Of a stretch of DNA of 64,000 nt, positions 4,735 to 36,023 are shown in pieces. Source of the DNA: a virus (taxonomy: Duplodnaviria > Caudoviricetes); IMG/VR virus record IMGVR_UViG_3300005512_000009, positions 1 to 64,000 of that record; one strand, written 5' to 3'. The notes beneath the pieces are model-generated. The model made no database searches. It worked only from the letters and a program-made list of their open reading frames with translations, and had not been told where the DNA came from. A program made the position numbers and the translations under genes. How positions within the stretch are numbered: the stretch's first letter is position 1; each line of letters starts with the position of its first letter.

Positions 4735-5698
4735 AGCTTTAATAACAGGAATAAATGGTCAAGATGGATCATATTTAGCAGAGTTTTTACTAAAAAAAGG
4801 CTATGAAGTTTGGGGAATAGTAAAAAGAAATTCAGTAGCTGAAACGCAGACTTCAAGACTTGATTCTATATTTGATAAAATTAATTTGAGATATGCAGAC
4901 TTAACAGATTTATCATCTTTAATTAATGTAATACAAGAATGTAACCCAGATGAAATATATAACTTAGCTGCACAATCGCATGTACGTATAAGTTTTGACC
5001 AACCAATTTATACTGCTAATGTAACTGCACTAGGAACGTTAAATGTATTAGAAGCAGTACGCTTAACAAATAAAAAAATACGAATATATCAAGCTTCGTC
5101 ATCTGAAATGTTTGGTAATAATATTGACGAAGATGGGTTTCAGCGAGAAACAACACCAATGAATCCAGTTTCTCCATATGGATGTTCAAAAGTTTTTTCT
5201 TATAATATATGTAATAATTACAAAAATTCATACGGAATGTATGTAACAAATGGCATATTGTTTAATCACGAATCGCCAAGGCGCGGAACGAATTTCGTAA
5301 CTAATAAAGTAGTGAAAACAGCTGTTGAAATTAAACGTGGTCTTAGAGACAAATTAGTATTAGGAAATCTAAGTTCGACCAGAGACTGGGGACATGCAAA
5401 AGACTATGTTGAAGCTATGTGGATGATAATGCAACAACACAACCCGGACAATTATGTTTGTGCTACAGGGCAATCACATTCAGTACTTGATTTAGTTACA
5501 TATGTATTTGATAAATTAGATTTAGATGTTGAAAAACATCTAGAAACGAGTACAAAATATTATAGACCAGAAGAATTAGACGATCTAAAAGGCGATAGTA
5601 CTAAATTGCGTCTTGCAACTGGGTGGGAACCTAAATATACATTTGAATCAATGTTAGATGAAATGATAAATCATTGGATGGGAATATATTCAAAATGA
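4721..5698 (+). CDS. gmd: GDP-mannose 4,6-dehydratase
   Basis: ALITGINGQDGSYLAE, YNLAAQSHV, QASSSEMFG, SPYGCSK, LFNHESPRRG, RDWGHAKDY. Confidence 0.95.
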   Translation: MNESRALITGINGQDGSYLAEFLLKKGYEVWGIVKRNSVAETQTSRLDSIFDKINLRYADLTDLSSLINVIQECNPDEIYNLAAQSHVRISFDQPIYTANVTALGTLNVLEAVRLTNKKIRIYQASSSEMFGNNIDEDGFQRETTPMNPVSPYGCSKVFSYNICNNYKNSYGMYVTNGILFNHESPRRGTNFVTNKVVKTAVEIKRGLRDKLVLGNLSSTRDWGHAKDYVEAMWMIMQQHNPDNYVCATGQSHSVLDLVTYVFDKLDLDVEKHLETSTKYYRPEELDDLKGDSTKLRLATGWEPKYTFESMLDEMINHWMGIYSK

Positions 5699-6615
5699 AA
5701 GTAGCATTTTTTACAGAGATGGAGTTCCGGGGCAAAGTGCCAAGAACTCATCCAAATATGAGAACTGAGTTTGCTTGGATGGTTGCATTAGATGCTGATC
5801 ATTACAATCTAAACCATGATGTAACGAAAAAATATGATTTGGGTATTGTAATTACTCCAAAAAATTCTCCAGATAAAGTAAACATTAACCATATGAAAAC
5901 GTTTTGTGAACGAGTTGGGGTGATGCAAGAAGGGCCATTTTGGTACTTTCAAGACTATGAACTTGCAAATCAAATTCACTATTTTAATAACTTAACTTCT
6001 GCAGATATTATATTTGCTCATAATGAGCAAGACAAACAATACTATAAAGGATTAACAGGACACTCAGATGTTAGAGTTTTACAATCTTTAATGATAGAAG
6101 ATGCATTATTAAATGTTCAATTGCAACACCCTGAAGGTAGAGATGGTATTATGATTGGAGGAAATATGAAGAGTTGGTATGGAGGTTTTGATTCATACAT
6201 GATAGCATCGTCAGTAACTGATAAAATATATCAACCTAAGATGGGTAGACGTCAAGAAGGTGAAGAACAATTAGGATTAACACAATTACCATATTTACAA
6301 TGGAATGAATGGATTTCTGAGTTAAGTAAAAGAAAAATAGGAATTCATTTAATGAGAACGCATGCAGCAGGTACCTTTGCACTTAATTGTTCATATTTAG
6401 GAATTCCATGCATTGGGTATGAAGGTTTAGATACTCAAAGAGAGTTACATCCCGAATTAACTGTTAGAGATGGCGACTTGGAAACTGCAAGAAAAAAGAT
6501 TATATTATTATATAATGATCAAGATTTTTATAAACAGTGTTCAGAAGAAACAATAAAACTTTATAAAAGTAAATATTCTGAAGAAGTGTTTAAAACAAAG
6601 GCAATAATATGTTAG
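5695..6615 (+). CDS. Putative GT-B glycosyltransferase-like protein
   Basis: Locus context; C-terminal AAGTFALNCSYLGIPCIG; start likely MKVAFFTE. Confidence 0.5.
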   Translation: MKVAFFTEMEFRGKVPRTHPNMRTEFAWMVALDADHYNLNHDVTKKYDLGIVITPKNSPDKVNINHMKTFCERVGVMQEGPFWYFQDYELANQIHYFNNLTSADIIFAHNEQDKQYYKGLTGHSDVRVLQSLMIEDALLNVQLQHPEGRDGIMIGGNMKSWYGGFDSYMIASSVTDKIYQPKMGRRQEGEEQLGLTQLPYLQWNEWISELSKRKIGIHLMRTHAAGTFALNCSYLGIPCIGYEGLDTQRELHPELTVRDGDLETARKKIILLYNDQDFYKQCSEETIKLYKSKYSEEVFKTKAIIC

Positions 6616-7202
6616 AAGCGTGGATGCATCCGGCAGAAAAAGAGTTAATTACAAAACATTTTTCGCCAGAAAAAACAATGTTAGAATGGGGCTCAGGCGG
6701 ATCTACAGTAGAGTTTGCAAAACATGTTAAAAAATTATATTCAATTGAACATAATGTAGAATGGTATGATAAAGTACAGAGCGAATTAACTAGATTGAAT
6801 ATAACAAATGTAGACTATAATTTTGTAAAGCAAAATGAAGATAGAGACGAAGGTCAGAGTACATACGATCAATTTAGAGACTATATTGATAAAGTAGACG
6901 ACTTCAATGAAAAGTTTGATATAGTTTTAATAGATGGTCGAGCTCGAAGACTTTGTGCATACAAGATCATTCCATACTTAAAAAAAGATGCAATTGTTAT
7001 AATACACGATTGGGTGTTACGACACGTATATCATTGTGTAACTGATTATTATGATTTATTTGAATATATAGCACATACACCACAAACAATTGCAACATTT
7101 AAATTAAAAGATAATTATACTAAAACATATGATCTTTCATTGGGTGGATTTGATAGAGTAGATACCGAGAAAGATAATTATTTTAAAAGTTACTTCTTAT
7201 AA
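6609..7202 (+). CDS. Class I SAM-dependent methyltransferase
   Basis: LEWGSGGST, SIEHN, FDIVLIDGRAR. Confidence 0.8.
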   Translation: MLEAWMHPAEKELITKHFSPEKTMLEWGSGGSTVEFAKHVKKLYSIEHNVEWYDKVQSELTRLNITNVDYNFVKQNEDRDEGQSTYDQFRDYIDKVDDFNEKFDIVLIDGRARRLCAYKIIPYLKKDAIVIIHDWVLRHVYHCVTDYYDLFEYIAHTPQTIATFKLKDNYTKTYDLSLGGFDRVDTEKDNYFKSYFL

Positions 7203-7215
7203 TCTTAGGATAAAA

Positions 7216-8454
7216 ATGAAAATTAGTTTTATACAACCAAGCAGAAACAATCTTAAATATCTTAAATGGTCTTATGATGCCATACGCAAAAATCAAGGTG
7301 AACATACAGTACAAATTTGCGTAGCCGACGATGCATCTACAGATGGTACATGGGAATGGTGTCAAGAAAGAATGAAAAGTGATGAACATTTCTCAGCAAT
7401 TCTTAATGATACTGGAAAGCGTCAGGGTCATACAATATTATATGACCGATTAGTTAATGAAGTAGCAGAACACGATGTTTGTATGATATATCATGCGGAT
7501 ATGTATTTGTGTCCTGGAGCTTTAGATGCTATTGAAAAACATATGTACCAAACACGTACATTGCTTTCAGATCCGCCGCAAGAAAGATTAGTTCCGAATG
7601 AAAAAACTATAGTATCACTTACAAGAATTGAACCACCATTACATCCAGATGGGCCTGAGAAGATTTTATGGGATGGGGGCGTAGAACCAGAAGAATTCAA
7701 AGAAGCAGAATTATTAAGTAATTTATCTGAATTTACACAACAAGATAAAACTACAGAAGGTATATTTGCTCCGTGGGCATTCTGGAAATCAGACTTTCAA
7801 GAAATAGGAGGTCATGACCCATTATATGCTCCGCAATCAAAAGAAGACTCAGATATTTTCAATCGTTTTCATTTAAATGGCGTTAAGTTTGTTCAAACAT
7901 GGGAAGGATTTGTGTATCATATGACCTGCAGGGGTTCAAGAAGAAATACTGCAGATAAAGCTACAAGCATTTATCAAGACTCTCCAGAGTGGTTGGAACA
8001 AAATAAACGAAGCACTAGAAACTTTATTAGGAAATGGGGACATTTCGTAGCACATGATGCTTTAATGAAGCCGATTGTGCCGCCTAAATATGATATCGGA
8101 TTTAGAGTCAAAACATGTAACAGTGAATTATTAGAAGCATTAGAACCATGGTGTAGTAATATACTAATCGATGACGAAATTCAAGTATTAACAACTCATT
8201 ACATAGACAAAGAGCAGAAAAATACTTTGTATAAATTAGAAGATAGAATTAAATCAACACCTTTTGAAACTTTAGACAACGAAATAATAGTTACGATAGA
8301 TAGAAAGACTTTTACACAACAAGATTTTTTATTAATTCAACAGTTGAGTCAAATCATTCAAGATAGCGGATCTGTTGGAGAGTTTCAAATTGGTAATTTG
8401 TATTTGAATATCAACAAAATGAATGAATATCAAACTGAGTTAGTTAAACTATGA
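7216..8454 (+). CDS. Glycosyltransferase family 2
   Basis: ADDASTDGT, HADM, EIGGHD, EDSD. Confidence 0.8.
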   Translation: MKISFIQPSRNNLKYLKWSYDAIRKNQGEHTVQICVADDASTDGTWEWCQERMKSDEHFSAILNDTGKRQGHTILYDRLVNEVAEHDVCMIYHADMYLCPGALDAIEKHMYQTRTLLSDPPQERLVPNEKTIVSLTRIEPPLHPDGPEKILWDGGVEPEEFKEAELLSNLSEFTQQDKTTEGIFAPWAFWKSDFQEIGGHDPLYAPQSKEDSDIFNRFHLNGVKFVQTWEGFVYHMTCRGSRRNTADKATSIYQDSPEWLEQNKRSTRNFIRKWGHFVAHDALMKPIVPPKYDIGFRVKTCNSELLEALEPWCSNILIDDEIQVLTTHYIDKEQKNTLYKLEDRIKSTPFETLDNEIIVTIDRKTFTQQDFLLIQQLSQIIQDSGSVGEFQIGNLYLNINKMNEYQTELVKL

Positions 8455-8630
8455 AAAAATTAACACAACAAGACTTAGAAAACTTATTGAACGACGAAGC
8501 TGATCCGGATGCGGTAAATCGTAAAGAACAAAAAAGCAAAAAGAAAAAACGCAATCATATTTATAATAAAGAATCAAAATAAGTTATTCTTCTCATCCAG
8601 TTATGTCAATGATTCAATAAAAGGAGTCAT

Positions 8631-8864
8631 ATGGCGTTTAAAGATATTTTCAAAGATAACAATGTATTTAACGAAAAAAACATTGTAGGCTTTGCATCAT
8701 TTGCAATCATGGCCGTATTTGCTGCAGCAGATGTAATTACCGGCTTTATGGGTAAAGAACTTGTTATCAGCGATACTATTTTCAATTCATTTGTAATCAT
8801 TACATTGGGTTCGTTTGGAATCGACGGTGTTACAAAAATATTTCAAAAAAAGGATGAGGAATAA
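8631..8864 (+). CDS. Small two-TM membrane protein (holin-like)
   Basis: Two hydrophobic segments and charged C-tail, directly before a putative cell-wall hydrolase. Confidence 0.45.
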   Translation: MAFKDIFKDNNVFNEKNIVGFASFAIMAVFAAADVITGFMGKELVISDTIFNSFVIITLGSFGIDGVTKIFQKKDEE

Positions 8865-8867
8865 TAA

Positions 8868-9476
8868 ATGGCGTGTTTTACAAGAGAACAAATACAACAA
8901 GCAGTAGAAGGTAAAGGTTATCGTTGGTTTGAAGGCGGTGACTACAATTTGAATATTGTAGGAGTTAGAAATTCAGAAACTGGCGGGAAAGTTACTAATA
9001 AATTTGATGACTGCGTAACTGTATCATATAGTGTGAATGGCGAAAACAAATTTCACTGTTTTGAAGCAACAACTGACCCTGGTTCACATTGGGAAAGAAA
9101 CCTATTAAACAAAGATGGTGTTGCAATCTTAGTACCTGGTCAATATAGAGGTTCTCATACAATTGGGTTACATCAAGGTAAGTATGAAGCTCTTAGACAA
9201 CATAAACCATTAAAAGTTTATAGAGATAAAAACAAAGATGGTGTATATGACTTCTTAGAAGAAAATATTCACGAAGGTATATACGGAATCAACATTCACA
9301 GAGCCACTTCAAGAGAAGGTGGGAAATCTGTACAGATTGATAAGTGGTCAGCAGGTTGCCAAGTAATCGCAGCAAATGCAGACTTCAAATTGTTTATGGA
9401 GTTAGTGAATAAGGCTGCAAAACTTTACGGAAATTCATTTACTTATACTTTGATTGAAAGTAAAGATATTTCATAA
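8868..9476 (+). CDS. Putative peptidoglycan hydrolase, L,D-transpeptidase/YkuD-like
   Basis: GINIHRA...WSAGCQV His/Cys motif; flanked by holin-like genes. Confidence 0.55.
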   Translation: MACFTREQIQQAVEGKGYRWFEGGDYNLNIVGVRNSETGGKVTNKFDDCVTVSYSVNGENKFHCFEATTDPGSHWERNLLNKDGVAILVPGQYRGSHTIGLHQGKYEALRQHKPLKVYRDKNKDGVYDFLEENIHEGIYGINIHRATSREGGKSVQIDKWSAGCQVIAANADFKLFMELVNKAAKLYGNSFTYTLIESKDIS

Positions 9477-9592
9477 TGAAAGAATTATCTGATATATTTA
9501 TAACAAAAGAGTTCAAAGAACTTCGATGGACTCAACGATTGTGGATACGAATAAAAGTAGCATTCATAGAATTAATTCAATATGGGTTCTAA
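9476..9592 (+). CDS. Small hypothetical protein (38 aa)
   Basis: Fills gap with overlapping stop/start; MKELSDIFITKEF... Confidence 0.4.
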   Translation: MKELSDIFITKEFKELRWTQRLWIRIKVAFIELIQYGF

Positions 9593-9593
9593 A

Positions 9594-10022
9594 ATGGAAT
9601 TATTAAAATCAACCTGGATACAGGTTATTATGTCGATTAGTACGGCGTGTGCATTTATGGGTTCATATTTTATGAATTTAACCGCAGACAATACAGAACA
9701 ATATCTTGCATTAGTTGCAGTTGTTCTATTAGATGGATTCTTTGGTCTTATTGCTGGAATTAAAAGAGAAGGATTCAAAACATACAAAGCAGTTAAAGTA
9801 TTAAAAACACTATTTGCTTGGATATTAATATTAACAGTAATTCTTTCAGTAGAATTAGGATTTAAAGGCACATCTTGGTTATCAGAAACCATTTTGATGC
9901 CTTTTATTGTTTTCCAACTTATCTCAGCTCTTAAAAATGCTTCAATGAGTGGTTTCATCAAAACAGAGTTACTTAATAAGATTCTTGATAAGATTGACCA
10001 ACATAAAGGAGATAGAAAATGA
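9594..10022 (+). CDS. Phage holin (family 4-like)
   Basis: VVLLDGFFGLIAGIK, three TM segments, SALKNA..G, basic C-tail. Confidence 0.65.
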   Translation: MELLKSTWIQVIMSISTACAFMGSYFMNLTADNTEQYLALVAVVLLDGFFGLIAGIKREGFKTYKAVKVLKTLFAWILILTVILSVELGFKGTSWLSETILMPFIVFQLISALKNASMSGFIKTELLNKILDKIDQHKGDRK

Positions 10023-10219
10023 AAACATTACTACAATATATAACATCAACCAGAATGGTTTACTTTCTAATGTCGATGGTATTGATAGTAGGGTATCTAC
10101 TTCAATCTTGGGAAGTTGTAATATTTGTTTGTTTGATGTTACAAATCGGCCTTTGGACAGGATTCTGTCCTTCAAAATACTTTTTTGAGAAATGTGGGTT
10201 TAAGAAAACGGAGCTGTAA
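10019..10219 (+). CDS. Small membrane protein, DUF2892/YgaP-like
   Basis: Two TMs followed by TGFCP. Confidence 0.5.
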   Translation: MKTLLQYITSTRMVYFLMSMVLIVGYLLQSWEVVIFVCLMLQIGLWTGFCPSKYFFEKCGFKKTEL

Positions 10220-11506
10220 ATGAACGCTCTGGATGGAATATCTATAAATTCCAAAATCTCCCTAATAGTTGCAGGTCTAATTATGATGACCTTCTTTGCA
10301 GTACAAACCTGTATTGTATTTGGGATATGTGAACCAACCTTATTTCTTGCCAAATTTGGATGGGGATGTGTTGTATTCTTTATGCCACCATTCTTTAAAG
10401 TGGTACAAGAGTTTATTAAGAAAACTAAAATTAAAGAAGCTAAAATTAATACTCAACTAAACGCAATTGATAAATCTAATTTAATAGTAACTCTAGGAAT
10501 GGACACTACTATATTATCAGCTAATCAAAATTTTCTTAATGTAGTAGGTTATTCAGAAGACGAAATACTAAATAGCAAACACCCTGATTTATGTACTACT
10601 GATTTTAAATCAAGTAAAGAATATAAAACTTTCTGGGAAAAATTACACAATGGAGAATTTGTTTCTGGGGAATTTGAACGTGTAAATAAAAACGGAGAAT
10701 CAATATGGTTATTTGGTACATATACCCCGTTACGGAATGCTAACGGAGTGTATGATAAAGTACTTAAAATAGCTGTTGATATTACATCACAACATAAAGC
10801 TGAAGCAGAAGTTAAACAAAAAAGTATTTACTTAGAACACGCTGCAAAAATCATTAGACATGATATGCATAGTGGTATCAACACTTACATTCCAAGAGGA
10901 TTAAATTCACTTCAAAGAAGGTTGGATGATGAACAAAAGAAAAAACTAAGAGCACCACTACAATTGTTAGGAGATGGTGTTAAACATGCTCAAAAAGTAT
11001 ATAGTGGAGTATATGAATTTACTAATTTAGTAAAAGAAAATGCTCAGATGCCGAAAACACCAAATAACATTAAACAAATCTTAGATGAATATTTATCACT
11101 TACTGCATATAAAAATCAGGTTCTTTTAGATGATAATTTACCTGTATCATTAGAAGTAAACGAACCACTTTTTTGTACTGCAATTGATAACTTAATTAGA
11201 AATGGATTAAAGTATAATGATTCACCAACAAAATGGGTTAAAATATATTTTGAAGGTAATTATAATAAAGGGAGCTTCATTGTTATCGAAGATAATGGCA
11301 GAGGTATGACTCAGAGTGAATTTGATGAGTTATCTAAACCATATGTTCGTAAAGAAGGTCAAAAAGAGAAAGGAACGGGTCTTGGTTTAAATATTTGTAA
11401 AGCTATACTAAAGGAGCATGGTTTTGAACTTTCAATTGAAGAAATAGAAGATGACCCCGACACAGTTGAAATTGAAAGTGGAACTAAAATGAGAATAAAG
11501 ATATGA
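10220..11506 (+). CDS. Membrane-bound PAS-domain sensor histidine kinase
   Basis: 2 TMs, PAS/PAC (FWEKL..GEF..GESIWL..YTP), H-box IRHDMH, N-box IDNLIRNGLKYN, EDNGRGM, GTGLGLNIC. Confidence 0.92.
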   Translation: MNALDGISINSKISLIVAGLIMMTFFAVQTCIVFGICEPTLFLAKFGWGCVVFFMPPFFKVVQEFIKKTKIKEAKINTQLNAIDKSNLIVTLGMDTTILSANQNFLNVVGYSEDEILNSKHPDLCTTDFKSSKEYKTFWEKLHNGEFVSGEFERVNKNGESIWLFGTYTPLRNANGVYDKVLKIAVDITSQHKAEAEVKQKSIYLEHAAKIIRHDMHSGINTYIPRGLNSLQRRLDDEQKKKLRAPLQLLGDGVKHAQKVYSGVYEFTNLVKENAQMPKTPNNIKQILDEYLSLTAYKNQVLLDDNLPVSLEVNEPLFCTAIDNLIRNGLKYNDSPTKWVKIYFEGNYNKGSFIVIEDNGRGMTQSEFDELSKPYVRKEGQKEKGTGLGLNICKAILKEHGFELSIEEIEDDPDTVEIESGTKMRIKI

Positions 11507-11940
11507 TTGATTCGTTAATGTTAGTAGATGATGAAAATTTGTTTCATCTTGTGTTTGAAGATGCGTGTTCTCTATTAGATATTACTCTTGCATTAGAAGC
11601 ATTGGATTCTTCTGATGAAGCAGATAAACTTTTTAAGAAATGGTTTACAGATGGTCCTGTAGATGAAAGACCAGAGTGTGTATTTGTTGATTTAAATATA
11701 ATTGGGTCTTCGTTTGATGGTATTGAACTAATCAGAAAAATAAATTATGAGTATGGTAATGGAGTGGTTATCGGAATCATCTCATCTTCTCAGGATGAAC
11801 AAGAAATCGAAAAGGCTAGAGCCGTTGGAGCTCAATTTTGGATTATTAAATCAGATGATATAGAACCTCGATTAGAAGAATTTAAAGCTGATTATGAAGG
11901 TTATAAAAATAGAACAGCACCTTTCAAAGTGTACAAGTAA
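11503..11940 (+). CDS. Stand-alone response regulator receiver
   Basis: LVDDE, VFVDLN (phosphoacceptor), DGIELI, ISSS, WIIKS. Confidence 0.9.
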   Translation: MIDSLMLVDDENLFHLVFEDACSLLDITLALEALDSSDEADKLFKKWFTDGPVDERPECVFVDLNIIGSSFDGIELIRKINYEYGNGVVIGIISSSQDEQEIEKARAVGAQFWIIKSDDIEPRLEEFKADYEGYKNRTAPFKVYK

Positions 11941-11949
11941 TGAAGAAAG

Positions 11950-12627
11950 ATGAAAATACAAAAATCTACGAGGGATATTCTATTAGAAATAGCCAAACAT
12001 AAGAGAGTTTATGTTGAGGGCAACTTTCTAAAACTAATTGAGCCAGAAGAAGGTGATGAAGAGTTCGAAGAATATTTAAAGTTATGTAAAGAAAAAGATT
12101 CAACTTCTCGTAGAAAAAGATTAGAAGTTACAAAACAAGTTCAAAAACAAAATTCTGAATTAGAGAAGGCTCAAAAAGAAAACAAACGAGTAAATAGACA
12201 ATTAGAAAAAGCTCTTAACGAAGCCATATATTCTGCAGAACAATCAAAAAAATCAAAAGAAGAAGCCGAAAAGGCAAAAGAAGAATTGGAAGTTGCATTA
12301 CAACTTGCAGAACAATCTAAAGAAGAAGCCCATAAATTAAAGGCTGAAGCAGAACACGCAAAAGAGGTTGCAGAAACCGACCTCTCATTACTACAAAAGA
12401 AAACACAAACCGAATTGATGGGTAACATCGTAAGAGTTGCTCTATGGGTTATTATGGGTGTAGGCTTACTTACTACAGCATTATATGTATTTGTGATGGT
12501 AAGAGGGTTGGATGCTAAAATTATTGAATCAACCTGGTCAAATCTATTTGGTATCTTACTTACAAATTCATTTAGTATTATTGGTACTATTATGGGTGTT
12601 AAACACGCTACTAAAGACAAAGAATAG
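11950..12627 (+). CDS. Coiled-coil protein with two C-terminal TM helices
   Basis: E/K/A-rich heptads then two hydrophobic segments. Confidence 0.7.
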   Translation: MKIQKSTRDILLEIAKHKRVYVEGNFLKLIEPEEGDEEFEEYLKLCKEKDSTSRRKRLEVTKQVQKQNSELEKAQKENKRVNRQLEKALNEAIYSAEQSKKSKEEAEKAKEELEVALQLAEQSKEEAHKLKAEAEHAKEVAETDLSLLQKKTQTELMGNIVRVALWVIMGVGLLTTALYVFVMVRGLDAKIIESTWSNLFGILLTNSFSIIGTIMGVKHATKDKE

Positions 12628-12658: not shown

Positions 12659-13006
12659 ATGGATTATAAAAACATACTGTACGGAGCATTGTTATTTATC
12701 ATTGGGCAAGCCATTGTTTGGATGCAAATTAATAGCCCGATTATATGGAATCTTTCTAAGCAACAAAAATGGGCTTTAATATTTTTAGGTGTGCCAATTA
12801 CATGGTTATTTATGGAAGGAACTAAATCTTTAGTAATTGGGTTTAATGGATCTTTTTGGCCCGGTAGATTCATCTCATTTGTAATGGGTATTATTGTTTT
12901 TACTATATTCACATACATTTTCCGGGGAGAAGGAATAACTATTAAGACTGCTATATCGTTAGTACTTGCACTCGGCATCATTTGTACACAGCTCTTTTGG
13001 AAGTAA
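12659..13006 (+). CDS. Four-TM membrane protein (DMT/SMR-like)
   Basis: Four hydrophobic helices; C-terminal GEGITIKT. Confidence 0.5.
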   Translation: MDYKNILYGALLFIIGQAIVWMQINSPIIWNLSKQQKWALIFLGVPITWLFMEGTKSLVIGFNGSFWPGRFISFVMGIIVFTIFTYIFRGEGITIKTAISLVLALGIICTQLFWK

Positions 13007-13044
13007 ACATATTTATAATAAATGAATATGTACTGGAGTATATA

Positions 13045-16520: not shown

Positions 16521-17113
16521 TGAGCAAGAAAAAATTACAAGAAGGATTTGGAATAGGAGAACTTCCTTCATCTAAACTAATGAAGATGAAAGTGGGACTT
16601 AAAGATCTTATGCCAGAAGGCGATGGATACCAAGTAGTTCCAGGCAAAGTATATGACAATCCATATGCAATGGCATTCAAACCAGTTGATCATGATGACA
16701 CTAAAGGAATGGGTTTGACTCATTCTTATACTACTGATTATGATCATGAAGGCAAAATGGCACGTACACAGCTTGAGCGTTGCATTGACACATCAAAAAT
16801 GCTTCGTGGTATGATTGATGAAAAAGCTGAATTGCCGGCATGGGTGCAAGCCAAACTGACTAAAGCAGCAGACTATTTGCAATCGGTTCATAACTACATG
16901 GATGGTCAAGATGGATTAGCAGATGACGGCCTGTTTCGTAAAAAAGAATTGATTGCTTCTATTCAACAAGACTTAGATGAAAAGATTCGCAAAGTAGAAG
17001 ATGGTTGGGCTGTATATCCAAGTGCGGGAGGAAAACGTTTAGGTACGCATCCTACAAAGAAAGCAGCTTTAAAACAATTGGCAGCTATTGAGATCAGCAA
17101 ACAAAAGAAATGA
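16517..17113 (+). CDS. Hypothetical putative head-associated protein
   Basis: DHEGKMA..LPAWVQAKLTKAADY; C-terminal LGTHPTKKAALKQL. Confidence 0.6.
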   Translation: MMSKKKLQEGFGIGELPSSKLMKMKVGLKDLMPEGDGYQVVPGKVYDNPYAMAFKPVDHDDTKGMGLTHSYTTDYDHEGKMARTQLERCIDTSKMLRGMIDEKAELPAWVQAKLTKAADYLQSVHNYMDGQDGLADDGLFRKKELIASIQQDLDEKIRKVEDGWAVYPSAGGKRLGTHPTKKAALKQLAAIEISKQKK

Positions 17114-17742
17114 TTAAGCTCAAAGACATATTACTAGAGGCTCCTAAAACAAATTTTAATGCCGAACTCATTGATTTTAATGAATCAAATGTATCTGCAG
17201 GACAAATGATATTTGATTATATTCGTAGTCATGAAAAGTTCGTACCATTTACTTATGATGATAAGGCAGGATATCCTCCAAAGCCATATGACAAATCAAA
17301 AGGTGCACCTAAGGGACGTTTAACAATTGGCTATGGAAGTACAGACCCAGAGTATGCATACCCAGGAAATAAAATAACAGAAGTAGAAGGTAAAAGACTT
17401 TCAGTAACAGGCATCAATGATGCTGCTGATTGTATACGTCGTTGGCAAAGCAGATCTAATGAGTTTGATGTGCATCAAAGAAAAATAACATTGAATATGT
17501 TTAGAGCATTAATTGACTTTGTATATAATGTTGGTTGTTCAGCTGCAGTGAATGGCGCAGTGTTTGAGTCAATTGAAGCAGGCGATTATGAAGATGCATA
17601 TACTCGTCTTAAAACTGGGAATTGGGGACACGAATCTAGACGTACAGAGACTGCAGAATTATTTGCACAAGAAGGGTTTCCTAATAGATATATCAATACA
17701 GCAAATCTGCAGTCCATGGCAAATTTCAAAACCAAAAAATAA
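17110..17742 (+). CDS. Lysozyme (GH24-like) with N-terminal leader
   Basis: IRSHEKF..YDD..LTIGYG, ALIDFVYNVG, RRTETAELF. Confidence 0.8.
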   Translation: MIKLKDILLEAPKTNFNAELIDFNESNVSAGQMIFDYIRSHEKFVPFTYDDKAGYPPKPYDKSKGAPKGRLTIGYGSTDPEYAYPGNKITEVEGKRLSVTGINDAADCIRRWQSRSNEFDVHQRKITLNMFRALIDFVYNVGCSAAVNGAVFESIEAGDYEDAYTRLKTGNWGHESRRTETAELFAQEGFPNRYINTANLQSMANFKTKK

Positions 17743-32280: not shown

Positions 32281-32339
32281 AAATGCTTGACACGCACACA
32301 TATTCTTCTTATATTTATGTAAATTAAAAGATAAGAGCA
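32281..32339 (+). promoter_or_regulatory. Early-type promoter repeat 1
   Basis: TTGACA-N17-TATATT plus TATGTAAATT leader. Confidence 0.85.
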
Positions 32340-32612
32340 ATGTTAGACACTTTAAAATGGGAGTTGGATCAAGCACTCCTAGTATGCGCAGACGGAACGG
32401 ATATTCCACTCACACAACGTTGGGAGTTGTCGTTGCAAGACATTGAATGCTGGTATGCAGAGATGATCCTGCTAGCAGAGAGTTACGGCAGGATCGTGAC
32501 ACACGTATTTACATTCTTCGAAGATGCACCTACCATGTTTTGGTTGGATGACTTGACTGGAGAGCTTAGAGCATTGGATGTTACAGACACAGAGAAAATC
32601 AATTTAAATTAA
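32340..32612 (+). CDS. Small early protein
   Basis: Directly behind promoter repeat. Confidence 0.65.
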   Translation: MLDTLKWELDQALLVCADGTDIPLTQRWELSLQDIECWYAEMILLAESYGRIVTHVFTFFEDAPTMFWLDDLTGELRALDVTDTEKINLN

Positions 32613-32617
32613 TAGAC

Positions 32618-32839
32618 ATGACAGATTTACAATTTACCCGGGACATTATTAAGTTTGATGCAGCCCATATGGATGCCGAAGAGTTCCAATTGTTTTTATA
32701 TGAGAATGACATTGAGCATGAGTGGCAAGAAGCTAATCCGGAAAACTTTAATGATGGCGTGTATGATGTGTTTTTGTTTGACTATGAAATGCCAGTACGC
32801 TTTATTAATGGCAAGTATATCTCAGAAGAAGATTTGTAA
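32618..32839 (+). CDS. Small acidic early protein
   Basis: D/E-rich 73-aa ORF. Confidence 0.65.
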   Translation: MTDLQFTRDIIKFDAAHMDAEEFQLFLYENDIEHEWQEANPENFNDGVYDVFLFDYEMPVRFINGKYISEEDL

Positions 32840-32850
32840 AAAAGTTTACA

Positions 32851-32910
32851 AAATGCTTGACACGCATTGAATTTTGTCTTATATTTATGTAAATTTAAAA
32901 ATTAAGAGAT
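32851..32910 (+). promoter_or_regulatory. Early-type promoter repeat 2
   Basis: TTGACA at 32857. Confidence 0.85.
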
Positions 32911-33285
32911 ATGGCTACAAGAAGCAGAATTGGAATGGAACAGCCTAACGGCGAAGTACGAAGCATTTATTGTCATTGGGATGGATATCCTGAGGGAGTA
33001 GGAGCAACGCTCCAGGAGCATTACGTGGATCCGGAAAAAGTAGAAGCACTCATTGCATTAGGTGATATTAGCGTATTACAACCATTAGTAGAGCCAGACG
33101 TGCCGGGAGTAGAGCATTCTTTTGCAAACCCAGCTCCATGCGTAACTGTTGCTTATCACAGAGACAGAGGAGAGAGTTTCTTCCCACCACGTGTTGATGC
33201 TAGCGTTGAATCGTTCAGCCAAAGCGACATTGAAGAGTACGGATATGTGTTTACTCAGTCTGGCGAATGGAAAACATTTTCGTAA
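32911..33285 (+). CDS. Conserved-type phage early protein
   Basis: MATRSRIG..SIYCHWDGYP..AYHRDRGE. Confidence 0.75.
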   Translation: MATRSRIGMEQPNGEVRSIYCHWDGYPEGVGATLQEHYVDPEKVEALIALGDISVLQPLVEPDVPGVEHSFANPAPCVTVAYHRDRGESFFPPRVDASVESFSQSDIEEYGYVFTQSGEWKTFS

Positions 33286-33296
33286 AAAAGTTTACA

Positions 33297-33356
33297 AAAT
33301 GCTTGACACGCACGAGAATAGTCCTTATATTTATGTAAATTAAAAGATTAAAGGTT
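33297..33356 (+). promoter_or_regulatory. Early-type promoter repeat 3
   Basis: TTGACA at 33303. Confidence 0.85.
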
Positions 33357-33542
33357 ATGAGTAAGAATAGTAGAAATTCCGGAAAGTTTAAGCAAGACGC
33401 AATATTGGGTCAGTTCCGTAGAGATGCACGCAGTAGCAATGAGAATTGTGCAGTTATGCAATGCATGAATAAAGCACCTAAAAAGGTTCAGAAGGAAGAA
33501 CCGGTAAGAATGAGTTTAAATTTTTTAGCAACCGGCAAGTAA
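33357..33542 (+). CDS. Small early protein
   Basis: Behind promoter repeat. Confidence 0.6.
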   Translation: MSKNSRNSGKFKQDAILGQFRRDARSSNENCAVMQCMNKAPKKVQKEEPVRMSLNFLATGK

Positions 33543-33543
33543 T

Positions 33544-33711
33544 ATGAATAATAGAGCAATTGACATTCTATTGAACAGAGGCTTAGCAGTTGTCATTCGA
33601 AAAGAATTGATTCAAGCAACGCGCGCAGCTTTGCAAGCAGAAGGCTTTGATACCGAATTCATTACAGATAGTGAAATTTTAGAATTAGTTAAACAAATTA
33701 ACGAGATATGA
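33544..33711 (+). CDS. Small early protein (55 aa)
   Basis: Read manually: MNNRAIDILLNRG...; stop overlaps sigma start. Confidence 0.55.
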   Translation: MNNRAIDILLNRGLAVVIRKELIQATRAALQAEGFDTEFITDSEILELVKQINEI

Positions 33712-34415
33712 ACAAGATATATGTTACCACAGGCGCAGTAGCCACAGAGACCCGGTCAGTAAAGAAGTATATGGCTGACATCAAGAAACCCAAATTACTA
33801 ACCCGAGAGCAGGAGGCAGATGCTACCCGAGATCAATTGATTGAATCCAATCTGCGATTTGTAGTTCAAGTAGCCAAGCAGTACCAGGGAATGGGATTGG
33901 AGCTAGAGGACCTGATAGGGTTCGGCAATGTAGGATTGTTTGAAGCTGCAGAGCGATTCGATCCCACTAGAAAGATCAAGTTCATTACCTTTGCAGTATG
34001 GTATATCCGAGCAGAGATTACCAAGGCATTAAATGATATGGGCCGCACAGTAAGGATCCCATCTCATAGAACAGCCACAGAAGAATATTCAACCATCTCC
34101 ACACAGACAGTGATTGGCGATGACGAAGACTCAGAGACTTATGCGGACCGATTCTTGCCAGCCGAGACGGATGTGAGCCGACAAGACCAAAGAGATCTTA
34201 ATGACATGATAGCAGCCGCATTGGCTCAGCTCAAACCCAAGCAGCGTGATGCAGTAGCATTGTTTTATGGGATCGGTGTAGAGTATCCAAGCTGCATGGA
34301 AGACATTGCTGAGAAGCTCGGCGTGTCAAATGAGAGAGCCAGACAATTGGTTAGAGCAGGCGAGGATGGGTTGAGGAACCTATCAGGATTAGAGATCCTG
34401 CAGCAGTATTTGTAA
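33708..34415 (+). CDS. Sigma-70 family RNA polymerase sigma factor
   Basis: LIESNLRFVVQVAKQY, DLIGFGNVGL, KFITFAVWYIR, region 4 IAEKLGVSNERARQ. Confidence 0.9.
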   Translation: MNKIYVTTGAVATETRSVKKYMADIKKPKLLTREQEADATRDQLIESNLRFVVQVAKQYQGMGLELEDLIGFGNVGLFEAAERFDPTRKIKFITFAVWYIRAEITKALNDMGRTVRIPSHRTATEEYSTISTQTVIGDDEDSETYADRFLPAETDVSRQDQRDLNDMIAAALAQLKPKQRDAVALFYGIGVEYPSCMEDIAEKLGVSNERARQLVRAGEDGLRNLSGLEILQQYL

Positions 34416-34443
34416 ATCATATCTTTTAATTTTTCATATCTCT

Positions 34444-34475
34444 AGGGCGGATCCAAATGCGGGTTCGCCCTTTTT
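34444..34475 (+). terminator. Intrinsic terminator
   Basis: AGGGCGGATCC..GGGTTCGCCCT-TTTT. Confidence 0.8.
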
Positions 34476-34520
34476 CTGCTGTGAATAACTTGTGAATAAC
34501 ACAGTTAAACTTTTCTTGGA

Positions 34521-34580
34521 TTTTGCTTGACTCGCATGCGTATTGTCCTTATATTTATGTAAATTAAAAGATTAAGAGAT
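34521..34580 (+). promoter_or_regulatory. Early-type promoter repeat 4
   Basis: TTGACT at 34527. Confidence 0.85.
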
Positions 34581-34856
34581 ATGGCATTTACGATTAAGAC
34601 CCAGGAAGAGTTCAACGAGTGTTTAATGTGGATCAGTGATTTATCCAAAGATGCCTATGGCTTCAGGGTACGTAACCGGGATTGGGCTTCAATGAGCTTT
34701 GAGGAGCTTGCAGCAGAGGTTAATTTCTTTTCTGACATTGTTGCTAGGGAAGAAGAGGAGTATGCCAAATACGAAGAAAGAGCCATCCAGAGATGTTTGG
34801 ATGCTGGAGCTCCAGACATAGAGACCGCAAAGCGTTGGTTAGAAGACGCAATGTAG
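34581..34856 (+). CDS. Small early protein
   Basis: ISDLSKDAYGFR..GAPDIETAKRW. Confidence 0.7.
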   Translation: MAFTIKTQEEFNECLMWISDLSKDAYGFRVRNRDWASMSFEELAAEVNFFSDIVAREEEEYAKYEERAIQRCLDAGAPDIETAKRWLEDAM

Positions 34857-34885
34857 GGCTAAAAAAAGTTTCAAAAAAGTTTCCA

Positions 34886-34945
34886 AAAAGGTTGACACGC
34901 ACGGGAAAAGACCTTATATTTATGTAAATTTAAAAATTAAGAGAT
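34886..34945 (+). promoter_or_regulatory. Early-type promoter repeat 5
   Basis: TTGACA at 34892. Confidence 0.85.
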
Positions 34946-35893
34946 ATGCAAAAAGTTTTTGAGCCGGCCAGGGTAGATGGCAAATTAGTAGCACGCAATG
35001 TAGCAACCGGAGAAGTAGCTCCAGACTCACTCATCCGTTATATTATGATCAACAAGGCAGAGAAAGCCAACCAAGTGCTAATGGTAGATACCGACACCGG
35101 CAGAGTGAAGCGCTTGGCCCGTACGGCAAAGACGCAGAAGGCTGCAGAGGATGCCAACAAGATGTCATTCCGCAACACCCTAGAGAAAAGGGATCCGAAG
35201 GTGATGTTTGACAACCTGGAGAGATTGACCAAGATGGTAGGTAGAGGAATCCAACCATCCCTAGTAATTACCGGTATGGCAGGAATGGGTAAGACTCACA
35301 TTGTAAAGGAGACCTTGAAGAATATGGGATTGAAAGAGTCTACCGACTTTGTTCACTTCAAAGGTAGAGCAACGGCAGCGGGTCTGTTTATTACGCTTTA
35401 TGAGAATAGTGACGCAGTAATTGTGTTGGATGATTGTGACTCAGTATTCAAGGATGATGATGCAGTGAATATATTGAAGGCAGCATTAGACTCATATGAT
35501 ACCAGAAGGATATCATATATAAGCAGCAAGCCACTCAAGGATGCATATGATCAGGCAGTGCCCCGACATTTTGAATTCACCGGCAAGATCATATTCATAT
35601 CCAATATTGCTCAAAGCAAGTTGGATGAAGCAGTTAAGTCTCGTAGCTTTGTAGCAGACATATCAATGAACACCAAGCAGATGTTTACCAGAATGGAGCA
35701 GCTCATGGACAAGATGGAGCCACGTATTCCAATGAAGGCTAAAGAAGAAGCATTGCGTTGCATGAAGGAGCTCAATGAAGAATTTGCCGGAGTAGAGATC
35801 AACCTGCGAAGCTTTATCAAGGCAGCCAGAGTAGCAGCAATGGGTTTTGACAATACCAAAGACATGATTGCCGAGCAAATCATTCCGGCATAG
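34946..35893 (+). CDS. AAA+ ATPase (phage type)
   Basis: GMAGMGKT, IVLDDCD, NILKAALD, IIFISN. Confidence 0.85.
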   Translation: MQKVFEPARVDGKLVARNVATGEVAPDSLIRYIMINKAEKANQVLMVDTDTGRVKRLARTAKTQKAAEDANKMSFRNTLEKRDPKVMFDNLERLTKMVGRGIQPSLVITGMAGMGKTHIVKETLKNMGLKESTDFVHFKGRATAAGLFITLYENSDAVIVLDDCDSVFKDDDAVNILKAALDSYDTRRISYISSKPLKDAYDQAVPRHFEFTGKIIFISNIAQSKLDEAVKSRSFVADISMNTKQMFTRMEQLMDKMEPRIPMKAKEEALRCMKELNEEFAGVEINLRSFIKAARVAAMGFDNTKDMIAEQIIPA

Positions 35894-35909
35894 AAGATGC
35901 ATATCTCAG

Positions 35910-35939
35910 AAGGGGAGTAGTCGCAAGGCTGCTCCTTTT
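35910..35939 (+). terminator. Intrinsic terminator
   Basis: GGAGTAGTC-GCAA-GGCTGCTCC-TTTT. Confidence 0.8.
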
Positions 35940-35961
35940 CAACTATTCAAACTTTTCTGGC

Positions 35962-36023
35962 AAAAAGGTTGACACGCACGGATATTATTCTTATATTTAT
36001 ATCATAATATAAAATTAAAAGAC
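35962..36023 (+). promoter_or_regulatory. Early-type promoter repeat 6
   Basis: TTGACA at 35969. Confidence 0.8.

Follow-up and report, generated by a model that had tools for sequence, protein, structure and literature searches.

Why would a phage keep a complete two-component system among its lysis genes, and on what could such a system act? The question is raised by positions 8631-12627 of a 64,000-nucleotide stretch of phage DNA (positions 1 to 64,000 of IMG/VR virus record IMGVR_UViG_3300005512_000009; the whole of this stretch is referred to as the window). Eight close-packed open reading frames (ORFs) follow each other there on the plus strand, the junctions between them measuring from -11 to +9 nt, and all eight that an earlier sequence-only reading had described were found. 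They encode a small membrane protein (tm77), a putative endolysin (lys202), a conserved short ORF (o38), a holin, a second small membrane protein (tm66), a sensor histidine kinase, a stand-alone receiver and, last, a coiled-coil protein that terminates in a hairpin of two transmembrane (TM) helices (cc225). The signalling module is intact, shares the orientation of the lysis genes and stands downstream of a promoter-like motif, as that reading had held. We suggest that many tailed phages of aquatic bacteria, as yet uncultured, encode an undescribed class of signal-gated lysis controllers, in which a near-invariant 2-TM hairpin would be driven via a rigid coiled coil by a phosphorelay or by a fused PAS or GAF domain. 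This proposal in its entirety is tentative, and our confidence in it falls a little short of even.

The window belongs to a 93.5-kb virus record with a CheckV completeness of 55%. Its guanine-cytosine (GC) content is about 32%, and nearly all genes are on the plus strand. Among cultured phages, Flavobacterium phage immuto (160 kb) is the closest relative; it has the holin (65% amino-acid identity), the 77-residue 2-TM protein and a GroEL gene in common with the window. Because immuto is the nearest cultured relative, the host of the window phage is probably an aquatic member of the Bacteroidota.

Co-inheritance of kinase, receiver and hairpin protein

Searches with the kinase, the receiver and the coiled-coil protein as queries fetched 328 loci, and 196 were left after de-duplication on hairpin DNA. 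All queries were signalling proteins; lysis genes were not selected for. The kinase, the receiver and the hairpin protein with its N-terminal domain (N-domain) occur together in 124 of the 196 loci. Wherever a receiver is found, its own kinase is nearly always present (124 of 127 receiver loci), and a receiver without the N-domain was seen at one locus only. The kinase, the receiver and the N-domain are all absent from 64 loci, where a PAS or GAF domain is fused directly to the coil and the hairpin. The trio is retained on contigs of 39-67% GC binned into metagenome-assembled genomes (MAGs) of five phyla. Identities on these contigs are 65-77% (receiver), 45-50% (kinase) and 34-44% (coiled-coil protein).

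What differs from locus to locus is the sensor part of the kinase. It can consist of two TM helices, two TM helices plus PAS, PAS only without TM helices (locus L093), another TM arrangement with PAS (L096), or GAF plus PAS. Since the input varies while the receiver and the third protein stay fixed, the third protein is expected to be the output. The N-domain tracks the receiver, and sensors are otherwise fused to the hairpin, so the hairpin would be an output module driven through the helix by cytoplasmic sensors. By the same pattern, the N-domain would be the input that replaces fused sensors where a receiver is present. The coiled-coil protein had been proposed earlier as the target of the receiver, and it is by far the best candidate given the co-inheritance of the trio, the association of the N-domain with the receiver and the natural PAS/GAF-hairpin fusions. 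At another locus (L094:3923-7510), two different kinases precede a single receiver and hairpin protein, and T4-type topoisomerase genes lie downstream. One of these kinases has TM plus two PAS domains, the other a signal peptide, a coil and TM, which suggests that two inputs may converge on one output.

Intact two-component systems had been thought rare in phages, a view that does not survive the survey. The receiver family has 3853 matches in the metagenomic database, and the cassette is present on hundreds of viral contigs. A full-text literature search found no paper describing such a cassette.

The coiled-coil hairpin protein and its fused forms

The proposed output protein, cc225, has 225 amino acids (11950..12627, plus strand). 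An alignment of the family (alignment A4) begins with a small N-domain and an invariant basic motif (RxKRLxVTKQVQxQN), which are followed by a coiled coil whose length varies and by a 2-TM hairpin (residues ~157-223, 12418-12618). In the second helix of the hairpin, the sequence WSNxFGILLTNSFSIxGTIMGVKYAT hardly changes even where overall identity is down to 43%. An AlphaFold2 (AF2) model of cc225, with a predicted local distance difference test (pLDDT) score of 83, contains a single continuous helix from residue 37 to residue 185 that runs into the first TM helix. The distribution of charges places the N-domain and the coil in the cytoplasm, probably on the same side of the membrane as the receiver.

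The cc225 family is virus-only. A profile search of 1.84 billion representative proteins yielded 245 clusters, and a search of a protein atlas with cc225 returned viral hypothetical proteins and generic long-helix matches only. The fused forms include a GAF-coil-hairpin protein (P0155), PAS-coil-hairpin proteins (P0161, P0176) and a PAS-PAS-coil-hairpin protein (P0174). The N-domain was also found fused to HisKA and HATPase_c domains (P0236, P0259, P0261, P0267). A related arrangement lies on a contig from a Bacteroidetes MAG (L097:5709-9090), where a kinase with three PAS domains is followed by a receiver of the same family and then by a soluble kinase made of the N-domain, HisKA and HATPase_c. 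This relative of the cassette adjoins genes with type IX secretion system (T9SS) sorting domains and looks cellular. It may form a kinase-receiver-kinase relay and may hint at where the phage cassette came from. Some loci (L005:7695-8183, L006-L008 and others) have a further 162-residue protein between the receiver and the hairpin protein, with about four TM helices and a coiled coil at its C-terminus; it matched no family.

Sensor kinase, membrane partner and receiver

The kinase (428 amino acids, 10220..11506, plus strand) has Pfam matches to PAS and HATPase_c. The HATPase_c domain (residues 318-427, 11171-11500) scores 56.4 bits against a cut-off of 26.4 and is the sole HATPase_c in the 93.5-kb record. 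Pfam HisKA gave no match to the kinase at E <= 0.1. The core aligns to HK853 of T. maritima (E 1.5e-12), and in this alignment H214 (10859-10861) occupies the position of the H-box phosphohistidine in the dimerization and histidine phosphotransfer (DHp) domain. The H, N and G boxes, already considered intact from the window alone, are invariant among eight relatives, both in the H-box stretch (YLEHAAKIxRHDMHSGINTY) and in the N and G boxes (DNLIRNGLKYN, DNGRG, GxGLGLN). The protein thus has the DHp histidine and the GHKL ATP-binding features of class I (HisKA/HK853-type) kinases, and it is predicted to be active in phosphorylation.

The most conserved part of the kinase is its 2-TM hairpin (residues 1-66, 10220-10417), with TM helices at residues 13-35 and 41-63, an outer loop of about four residues (CEPT) and invariant cysteines C31, C37 and C50. 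The PAS domain (residues 88-192, 10481-10795; PAS_3/PAS_9) behaves differently, being cleanly missing from many relatives, some of which are 93% identical over the remaining kinase. Among L010, L013, L014 and the window, the segment encoding it (residues ~67-190; 10418-10795) is present in some and absent in others, and the rest of the kinase is 86-93% identical. Because it is missing in near-identical relatives, the PAS domain is best read as a dispensable input that was recently gained or lost in frame. The kinase C-terminus of L014 is far closer to that of the window than the flanking genes of L014 are, a pattern that suggests mosaic recombination. The nearest PAS matches in PDB and NCBIfam are of the MmoS, LOV, Aer and NifL types. 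The PAS domain had been assigned to redox or O2 sensing. This assignment, like that of a LOV domain, was rejected as unsupported, since no cysteine is conserved, only the histidine of a G-x-x-H motif is found, no cofactor motif is recognisable and near-identical relatives do without the domain.

Directly ahead of the kinase, tm66 encodes a 66-residue 2-TM protein (10019..10219, plus strand; ...WTGFCPSK...) with an invariant T-x-FCPSK motif (alignment A3). It is present in 45 of the 62 loci whose kinase has the 2-TM sensor and never elsewhere. Because it is co-inherited only with this sensor, tm66 is probably an accessory partner of the kinase membrane sensor, as expected for an intramembrane-sensing kinase. 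The YgaP-like_TM family (DUF2892, PF11127) matches three of nine tm66 members weakly (best E 0.0084) and gives no match to the window protein. In the atlas, PF11127 is carried by 10-25% of the members of neighbouring clusters, with scores of 0.87-0.88. A cysteine-bearing sensor with a GFCP partner invites a speculative reading in terms of thiols, redox state or membrane energy.

The receiver (145 amino acids, 11503..11940, plus strand) has its phospho-acceptor at D63 (11689-11691). In alignments, D63, S94 and K116 fall on the matching positions of receivers, and together with D9 and D10 they are invariant across 15 sequences, in line with the earlier statement that the catalytic residues are intact. 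That the protein lacks a DNA-binding or other output domain was also borne out, as the receiver domain alone was detected. The receiver is highly divergent, the best natural PDB profile matches being 3ILH (5e-4) and Spo0F (3e-3). The orthologue in L097 scores 44.2 bits against Pfam Response_reg, and database homologues carry PF00072. When the 93.5-kb record was searched with PF00072 for another receiver, none was found, but the known receiver was missed as well. No other protein of the cassette is as conserved as the receiver, with 78-86% identity in IMG/VR relatives. Each part is intact, and purifying selection acts on the genes. Ratios of nonsynonymous to synonymous substitution rates (dN/dS) against close relatives are 0.04-0.12 for the receiver, 0.07-0.2 for cc225, 0-0.13 for tm66 and 0.19-0.42 for the kinase core.

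Proximity to lysis genes

A peptidoglycan hydrolase lies within 3 kb of the signalling block in 133 of the 196 loci. The enzymes are of four unrelated types, with GH19 in 51 loci, Peptidase_M15_3 in 47, Amidase_2 in 27 and lys202-type proteins in 23. Within the same distance, a tm77-like 2-TM protein occurs in 75 loci and a Phage_holin_4_1 holin in 30, and any hydrolase, tm77-like or holin gene in 147. The median gap to such neighbour clusters is 15-261 nt. Among loci with full 3-kb flanks, 83 of 108 have some lysis-type gene; split by architecture, these are 35 of 37 fused forms and 48 of 71 two-component forms. The lysis neighbourhood is kept in at least seven different gene orders. For example, the order in L259 runs from a tm77-like gene through a PAS-hairpin and an M15 endolysin to a lipoprotein with a C-terminal TM helix that is spanin-like, and that in L145 from a small TM protein through a tm77-like gene and a PAS-hairpin to a GH19 endolysin. 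Of 46 fused loci, 44 have a further small membrane protein encoded within 2 kb on the same strand. On the whole, the cassette behaves as a mobile unit that favours lysis cassettes strongly, though not without exception.

Proposed mechanism and alternative explanations

The kinase, which is without a periplasmic domain, would read a membrane-borne cue through its cysteine-bearing 2-TM hairpin, probably with the help of tm66, and the dispensable cytoplasmic PAS domain would provide a second input. Following autophosphorylation on H214, the phosphate would pass to D63 of the receiver, and the phosphorylated receiver would dock on the N-domain of cc225. The change brought about by docking would then run down the long helix into the near-invariant 2-TM hairpin. 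An altered association of hairpins in the inner membrane might finally shift the moment at which the holin triggers, and with it the onset of lysis. We consider it highly probable that the kinase, the receiver and the N-domain, helix and hairpin of cc225 form one pathway. Towards the combined claim, that they do so and that the pathway modulates lysis, we lean slightly. The steps that we infer are phosphotransfer between the kinase and the receiver of the window, docking of the receiver on the N-domain, the kind of signal, whether its effect is a delay or an acceleration, and the holin as target.

Several observations weigh against a signal-gated lysis controller. The sequence-only reading had named a lack of linkage to lysis genes in relatives as evidence against it, and this applies in part: 133 of 196 loci lie near a hydrolase, and about a quarter of loci have no recognisable lysis gene within 3 kb. 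In a first tally, 17 of 81 loci had no homologue of the window lysis genes within 2.5 kb. The 196 loci are moreover related to each other, so that counts among them are not independent events. In a complete 117-kb genome (L022) the cassette follows ribonucleotide reductase, in complete genomes of 64-65 kb (L048, L060) it lies between tail-fibre and capsid genes, and on further contigs it stands beside uracil-DNA glycosylase (UDG), methylase or topoisomerase genes. The holin family of the window is wholly absent from five lysis-unlinked records. In one member of the 65-kb group (L061), a tm77-like protein and a 53-residue TM protein are still encoded just upstream of the cassette. Accessory genes are known to settle at the edges of lysis cassettes. 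The proteins themselves also raise doubts. The hairpin protein cc225 matched no Pfam, PHROG or NCBIfam lysis family, holins and antiholins included, and a Foldseek search against PDB gave no fold match. Its hairpin was considered as a paralogue of the tm77-like holin candidate, which was rejected at an hhalign probability of 0.8%. The receiver scores 29.3 bits against Pfam Response_reg, just below the cut-off of 30.2, and the single line of evidence pointing to its docking on the N-domain is co-occurrence. Among 50,697 deposited phage records (GenBank/INPHARED), no receiver, hairpin protein or PAS-hairpin fusion of this kind was found. The kinase and its PAS domain gave only weak, generic domain-level matches in these records.

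The cassette could alternatively be a mobile accessory module that alters some other membrane property of the infected cell, with its proximity to lysis genes stemming from an insertion-tolerant border of the late genes. Energy state, transport, envelope stress response or the exclusion of superinfecting phages could be the property concerned. The cassette moves as a unit among unrelated genomes of 64-65 kb, 117 kb and ~170 kb, it adjoins ribonucleotide reductase, UDG, methylase, topoisomerase and structural genes, and immuto has the tm77 and holin genes without it. The lack of similarity between the hairpin protein and known lysis proteins fits an accessory role as well. An insertion-tolerant border does not readily account for the repeated adjacency to endolysins of four non-homologous types across many gene orders, nor for lysis adjacency that is near-universal in fused forms (35 of 37). 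By a rough estimate, not derived from whole genomes, a random gene would lie that near an endolysin in only a few per cent of cases. We regard an accessory module with another function as unlikely, though it is a serious alternative.

The hairpin protein could instead act as a signal-gated holin or depolarising pore of its own, opened by the receiver or by a fused PAS or GAF domain. Its two TM helices would have both termini inside, followed by a short charged tail, and the near-invariant helix is rich in small and polar residues (GILLTNSFSIxGTIMG). The protein directly adjoins endolysins, and sensor domains are connected to the hairpin via a continuous helix. It matches no holin family, however, and the window already has a Pfam-supported holin as well as tm77. 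The other small membrane protein that is encoded nearby on the same strand in 44 of 46 fused loci mildly favours the hairpin as a regulator over the hairpin as a pore. A pore function is improbable in our assessment. It is very improbable that the phage kinase phosphorylates host regulators, or that the receiver drains phosphate from host kinases with the hairpin as a membrane tether: phage interference with host two-component systems is known (PIT4, in excerpts of PMC10714779), and the receiver is far more conserved than the kinase (65-86% against 45-64% identity), as expected if several partners must be fitted, but fused PAS/GAF-hairpins drop kinase and receiver while keeping the hairpin and the lysis neighbourhood, the receiver comes with its own kinase in 124 of 127 loci, and hosts spanning 39-67% GC make no single host partner evident.

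Transcription unit and neighbouring genes

The layout of the block is compatible with shared expression of the lysis and signalling genes. No terminator-like site was found on the plus strand within 8631-12627, and both copies of ATATTTAT noted earlier, at 8557 and 9494, are present. ATATTTAT extends to a longer motif, ATATTTATWATAAA, with 13 matches at <=1 mismatch against 0.84 expected. Twelve of the 13 are on the plus strand, and the matches lie mostly shortly upstream of start codons, including those of genes adjoining the baseplate wedge gene. A perfect copy of the promoter-like motif ATATTTATAATAAA (8557..8570, plus strand) stands 61 nt upstream of the first gene of the block, and the next perfect copy (13009..13022, plus strand) follows just past the last membrane gene. 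The copy at 9494 has one mismatch. The same motif precedes the lysis block in L010, L017 and L019, and in L056 it precedes o38, tm66 and the kinase, with no holin nearby. The simplest reading is that 8557 to ~13006 would be one transcript, presumably a late one, and the motif at 13009 likely marks the end of the unit. By its position, the last gene before that motif, tm115 (12659..13006, plus strand), would belong to the unit as well. It encodes a 115-residue multi-TM protein that matched no Pfam or PHROG family, and homologues lie downstream of the coiled-coil gene in several relatives.

The first gene of the block, tm77 (8631..8864, plus strand), encodes a 77-residue 2-TM protein with a charged C-terminal tail. 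It is a holin-like candidate for which no Pfam or PHROG family was matched, and its homologue in immuto stands ahead of the endolysin. The adjacent gene, lys202 (8868..9476, plus strand), encodes a 202-residue putative endolysin of uncharacterised type that matches phrog_3000 (1.4e-34) and phrog_33083 (endolysin, 3.5e-16). The same slot is filled by a PG_binding_1 and Amidase_2 protein in relatives and by a GH19 enzyme in immuto. The protein is a credible endolysin on this evidence. No match was found in Pfam, NCBIfam or PDB (single-sequence and profile PDB searches), YkuD included, and an AF2 model built from an eight-sequence alignment reached a pLDDT of 38 and was unusable for fold assignment. 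Residues H144 and S161-x-G163-C164 are invariant among relatives. Their spacing resembles the YkuD motif, but the searches give no support to the YkuD-like label of the earlier reading.

The conserved 38-residue ORF o38 (9476..9592, plus strand) is kept in relatives and accompanies tm66 and the kinase even without a nearby holin (L056). The holin gene (9582..10022, plus strand) encodes a 146-residue protein that matches Phage_holin_4_1 (PF05105, 28.5 bits against a cut-off of 22.2) and phrog_199 (holin), and that is 65% identical to the annotated holin of immuto. It is a Phage_holin_4_1 protein in a lysis context and is predicted to form holes. After the lysis region, some relatives encode a membrane and coiled-coil protein of 357-398 residues (L005:8826-9899, L014:6007-7203 and immuto gp86, L002:10152-11297) with a weak match to EAD9 (E 5.6e-4); none was seen near the block of the window.

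A glycan-modification cluster (5674-8454) lies directly upstream of the lysis block, with a GT2 glycosyltransferase gene (7216-8454) and a Methyltransf_24-like gene (6609-7202; 23.2 bits, below the cut-off of 26.3). At 17110-17742, 4.5 kb downstream of the block, a Phage_lysozyme gene (PF00959, 53 bits; phrog_7 endolysin) encodes a second cell-wall enzyme, and the phage therefore has two unrelated muralytic genes. Another class of promoter-like sequences was found at 32311-36000. Six sigma-70-like repeats (TTGACAcgcac, a spacer of ~17 nt, then ATATTTATgtaaatt) each stand ~25-30 nt upstream of a small gene, and they look like an early promoter bank separate from the ATATTTATWATAAA class. In the 64-65-kb phages, TATCTTTG lies just after a hairpin terminator (L048:6500-6535 and L060:6505-6545). 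This sequence fits TAnnTTTG, the -7 promoter consensus of the Bacteroidota, and the fit hints at the host phylum of these phages.

Comparison with known systems

For a phage, the timing of lysis determines burst size and counts among the main traits behind its fitness. To our knowledge, the only well-understood case in which this timing is adjusted by a signal is the lysis inhibition of T-even phages. If the proposed controller is real, the virus would choose its burst time from the internal or membrane state of the host. It would be the first two-component system with a membrane-hairpin output domain, which would itself be a new output domain for two-component signalling, and the first phosphorelay-controlled lysis clock of a phage. 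Many environmental phages might then tune lysis to host physiology, which would bear on models of aquatic viral mortality and carbon release. The cassette also offers a compact, modular and sensor-swappable lysis switch for study. Its natural series of 2-TM, PAS and GAF inputs, fused or relayed, makes the question directly testable.

In the lysis inhibition of T4, the holin T is controlled by two antiholins, RI and RIII, and Vibrio phage ICP1 has a comparable system (excerpts of PMC11413866, PMC8385771, PMC7182436). Both T4 and the cassette would place a phage sensing device among the lysis genes, with membrane and cytoplasmic parts that are thought to shift holin triggering. The two are unrelated in sequence and fold, and the hairpin protein showed no homology to the described lysis-regulator families tested (T4 RI/RIII, lambda S107, P1 LydB). 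In T4, superinfection is sensed by a periplasmic protein that binds the holin directly, whereas in the cassette a new 2-TM hairpin would be acted on from the cytoplasmic side, either by a His-Asp phosphorelay or by a PAS or GAF domain fused to it.

Cellular bacteria provide a second parallel. The staphylococcal two-component system LytSR controls the holin-like and antiholin-like proteins LrgAB and CidAB, and like the cassette it ties two-component signalling to holin-type membrane proteins and to the state of the membrane. Its kinase, LytS, has multiple TM helices and belongs to the His_kinase (PF06580) type, and LytR regulates transcription with a LytTR DNA-binding domain. The cassette is viral, and it differs from this cellular system in its HisKA/HK853-like kinase, in a receiver without a LytTR domain and in an output proposed to work through protein contact. 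On the input side, the closest likeness is to the intramembrane-sensing kinases LiaS and BceS, which work with the accessory membrane proteins LiaF and BceAB. The tight 2-TM sensor with its minimal outer loop and the small membrane protein directly upstream, tied to that sensor, recall these systems. No homology of the cassette to LiaF or BceAB was found. Unlike them, the accessory protein here is a 66-residue YgaP-like 2-TM protein with an invariant cysteine, and the regulator consists of a receiver only.

The relay itself resembles HK853-RR468 and the single-domain receivers CheY, Spo0F and DivK, in that a class I HisKA-type core is combined with a receiver lacking an output domain. The receiver of the cassette is nevertheless highly divergent, and it would act on a membrane protein known from viruses only. 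Sensor histidine kinases encoded by phages have a precedent in the Clostridioides difficile phage phiCDHM1, which encodes an AgrC-type kinase. That kinase belongs to another family and comes without a phage receiver, a hairpin protein or a lysis-cassette context. What is new here is the joining of standard two-component parts to a new output.

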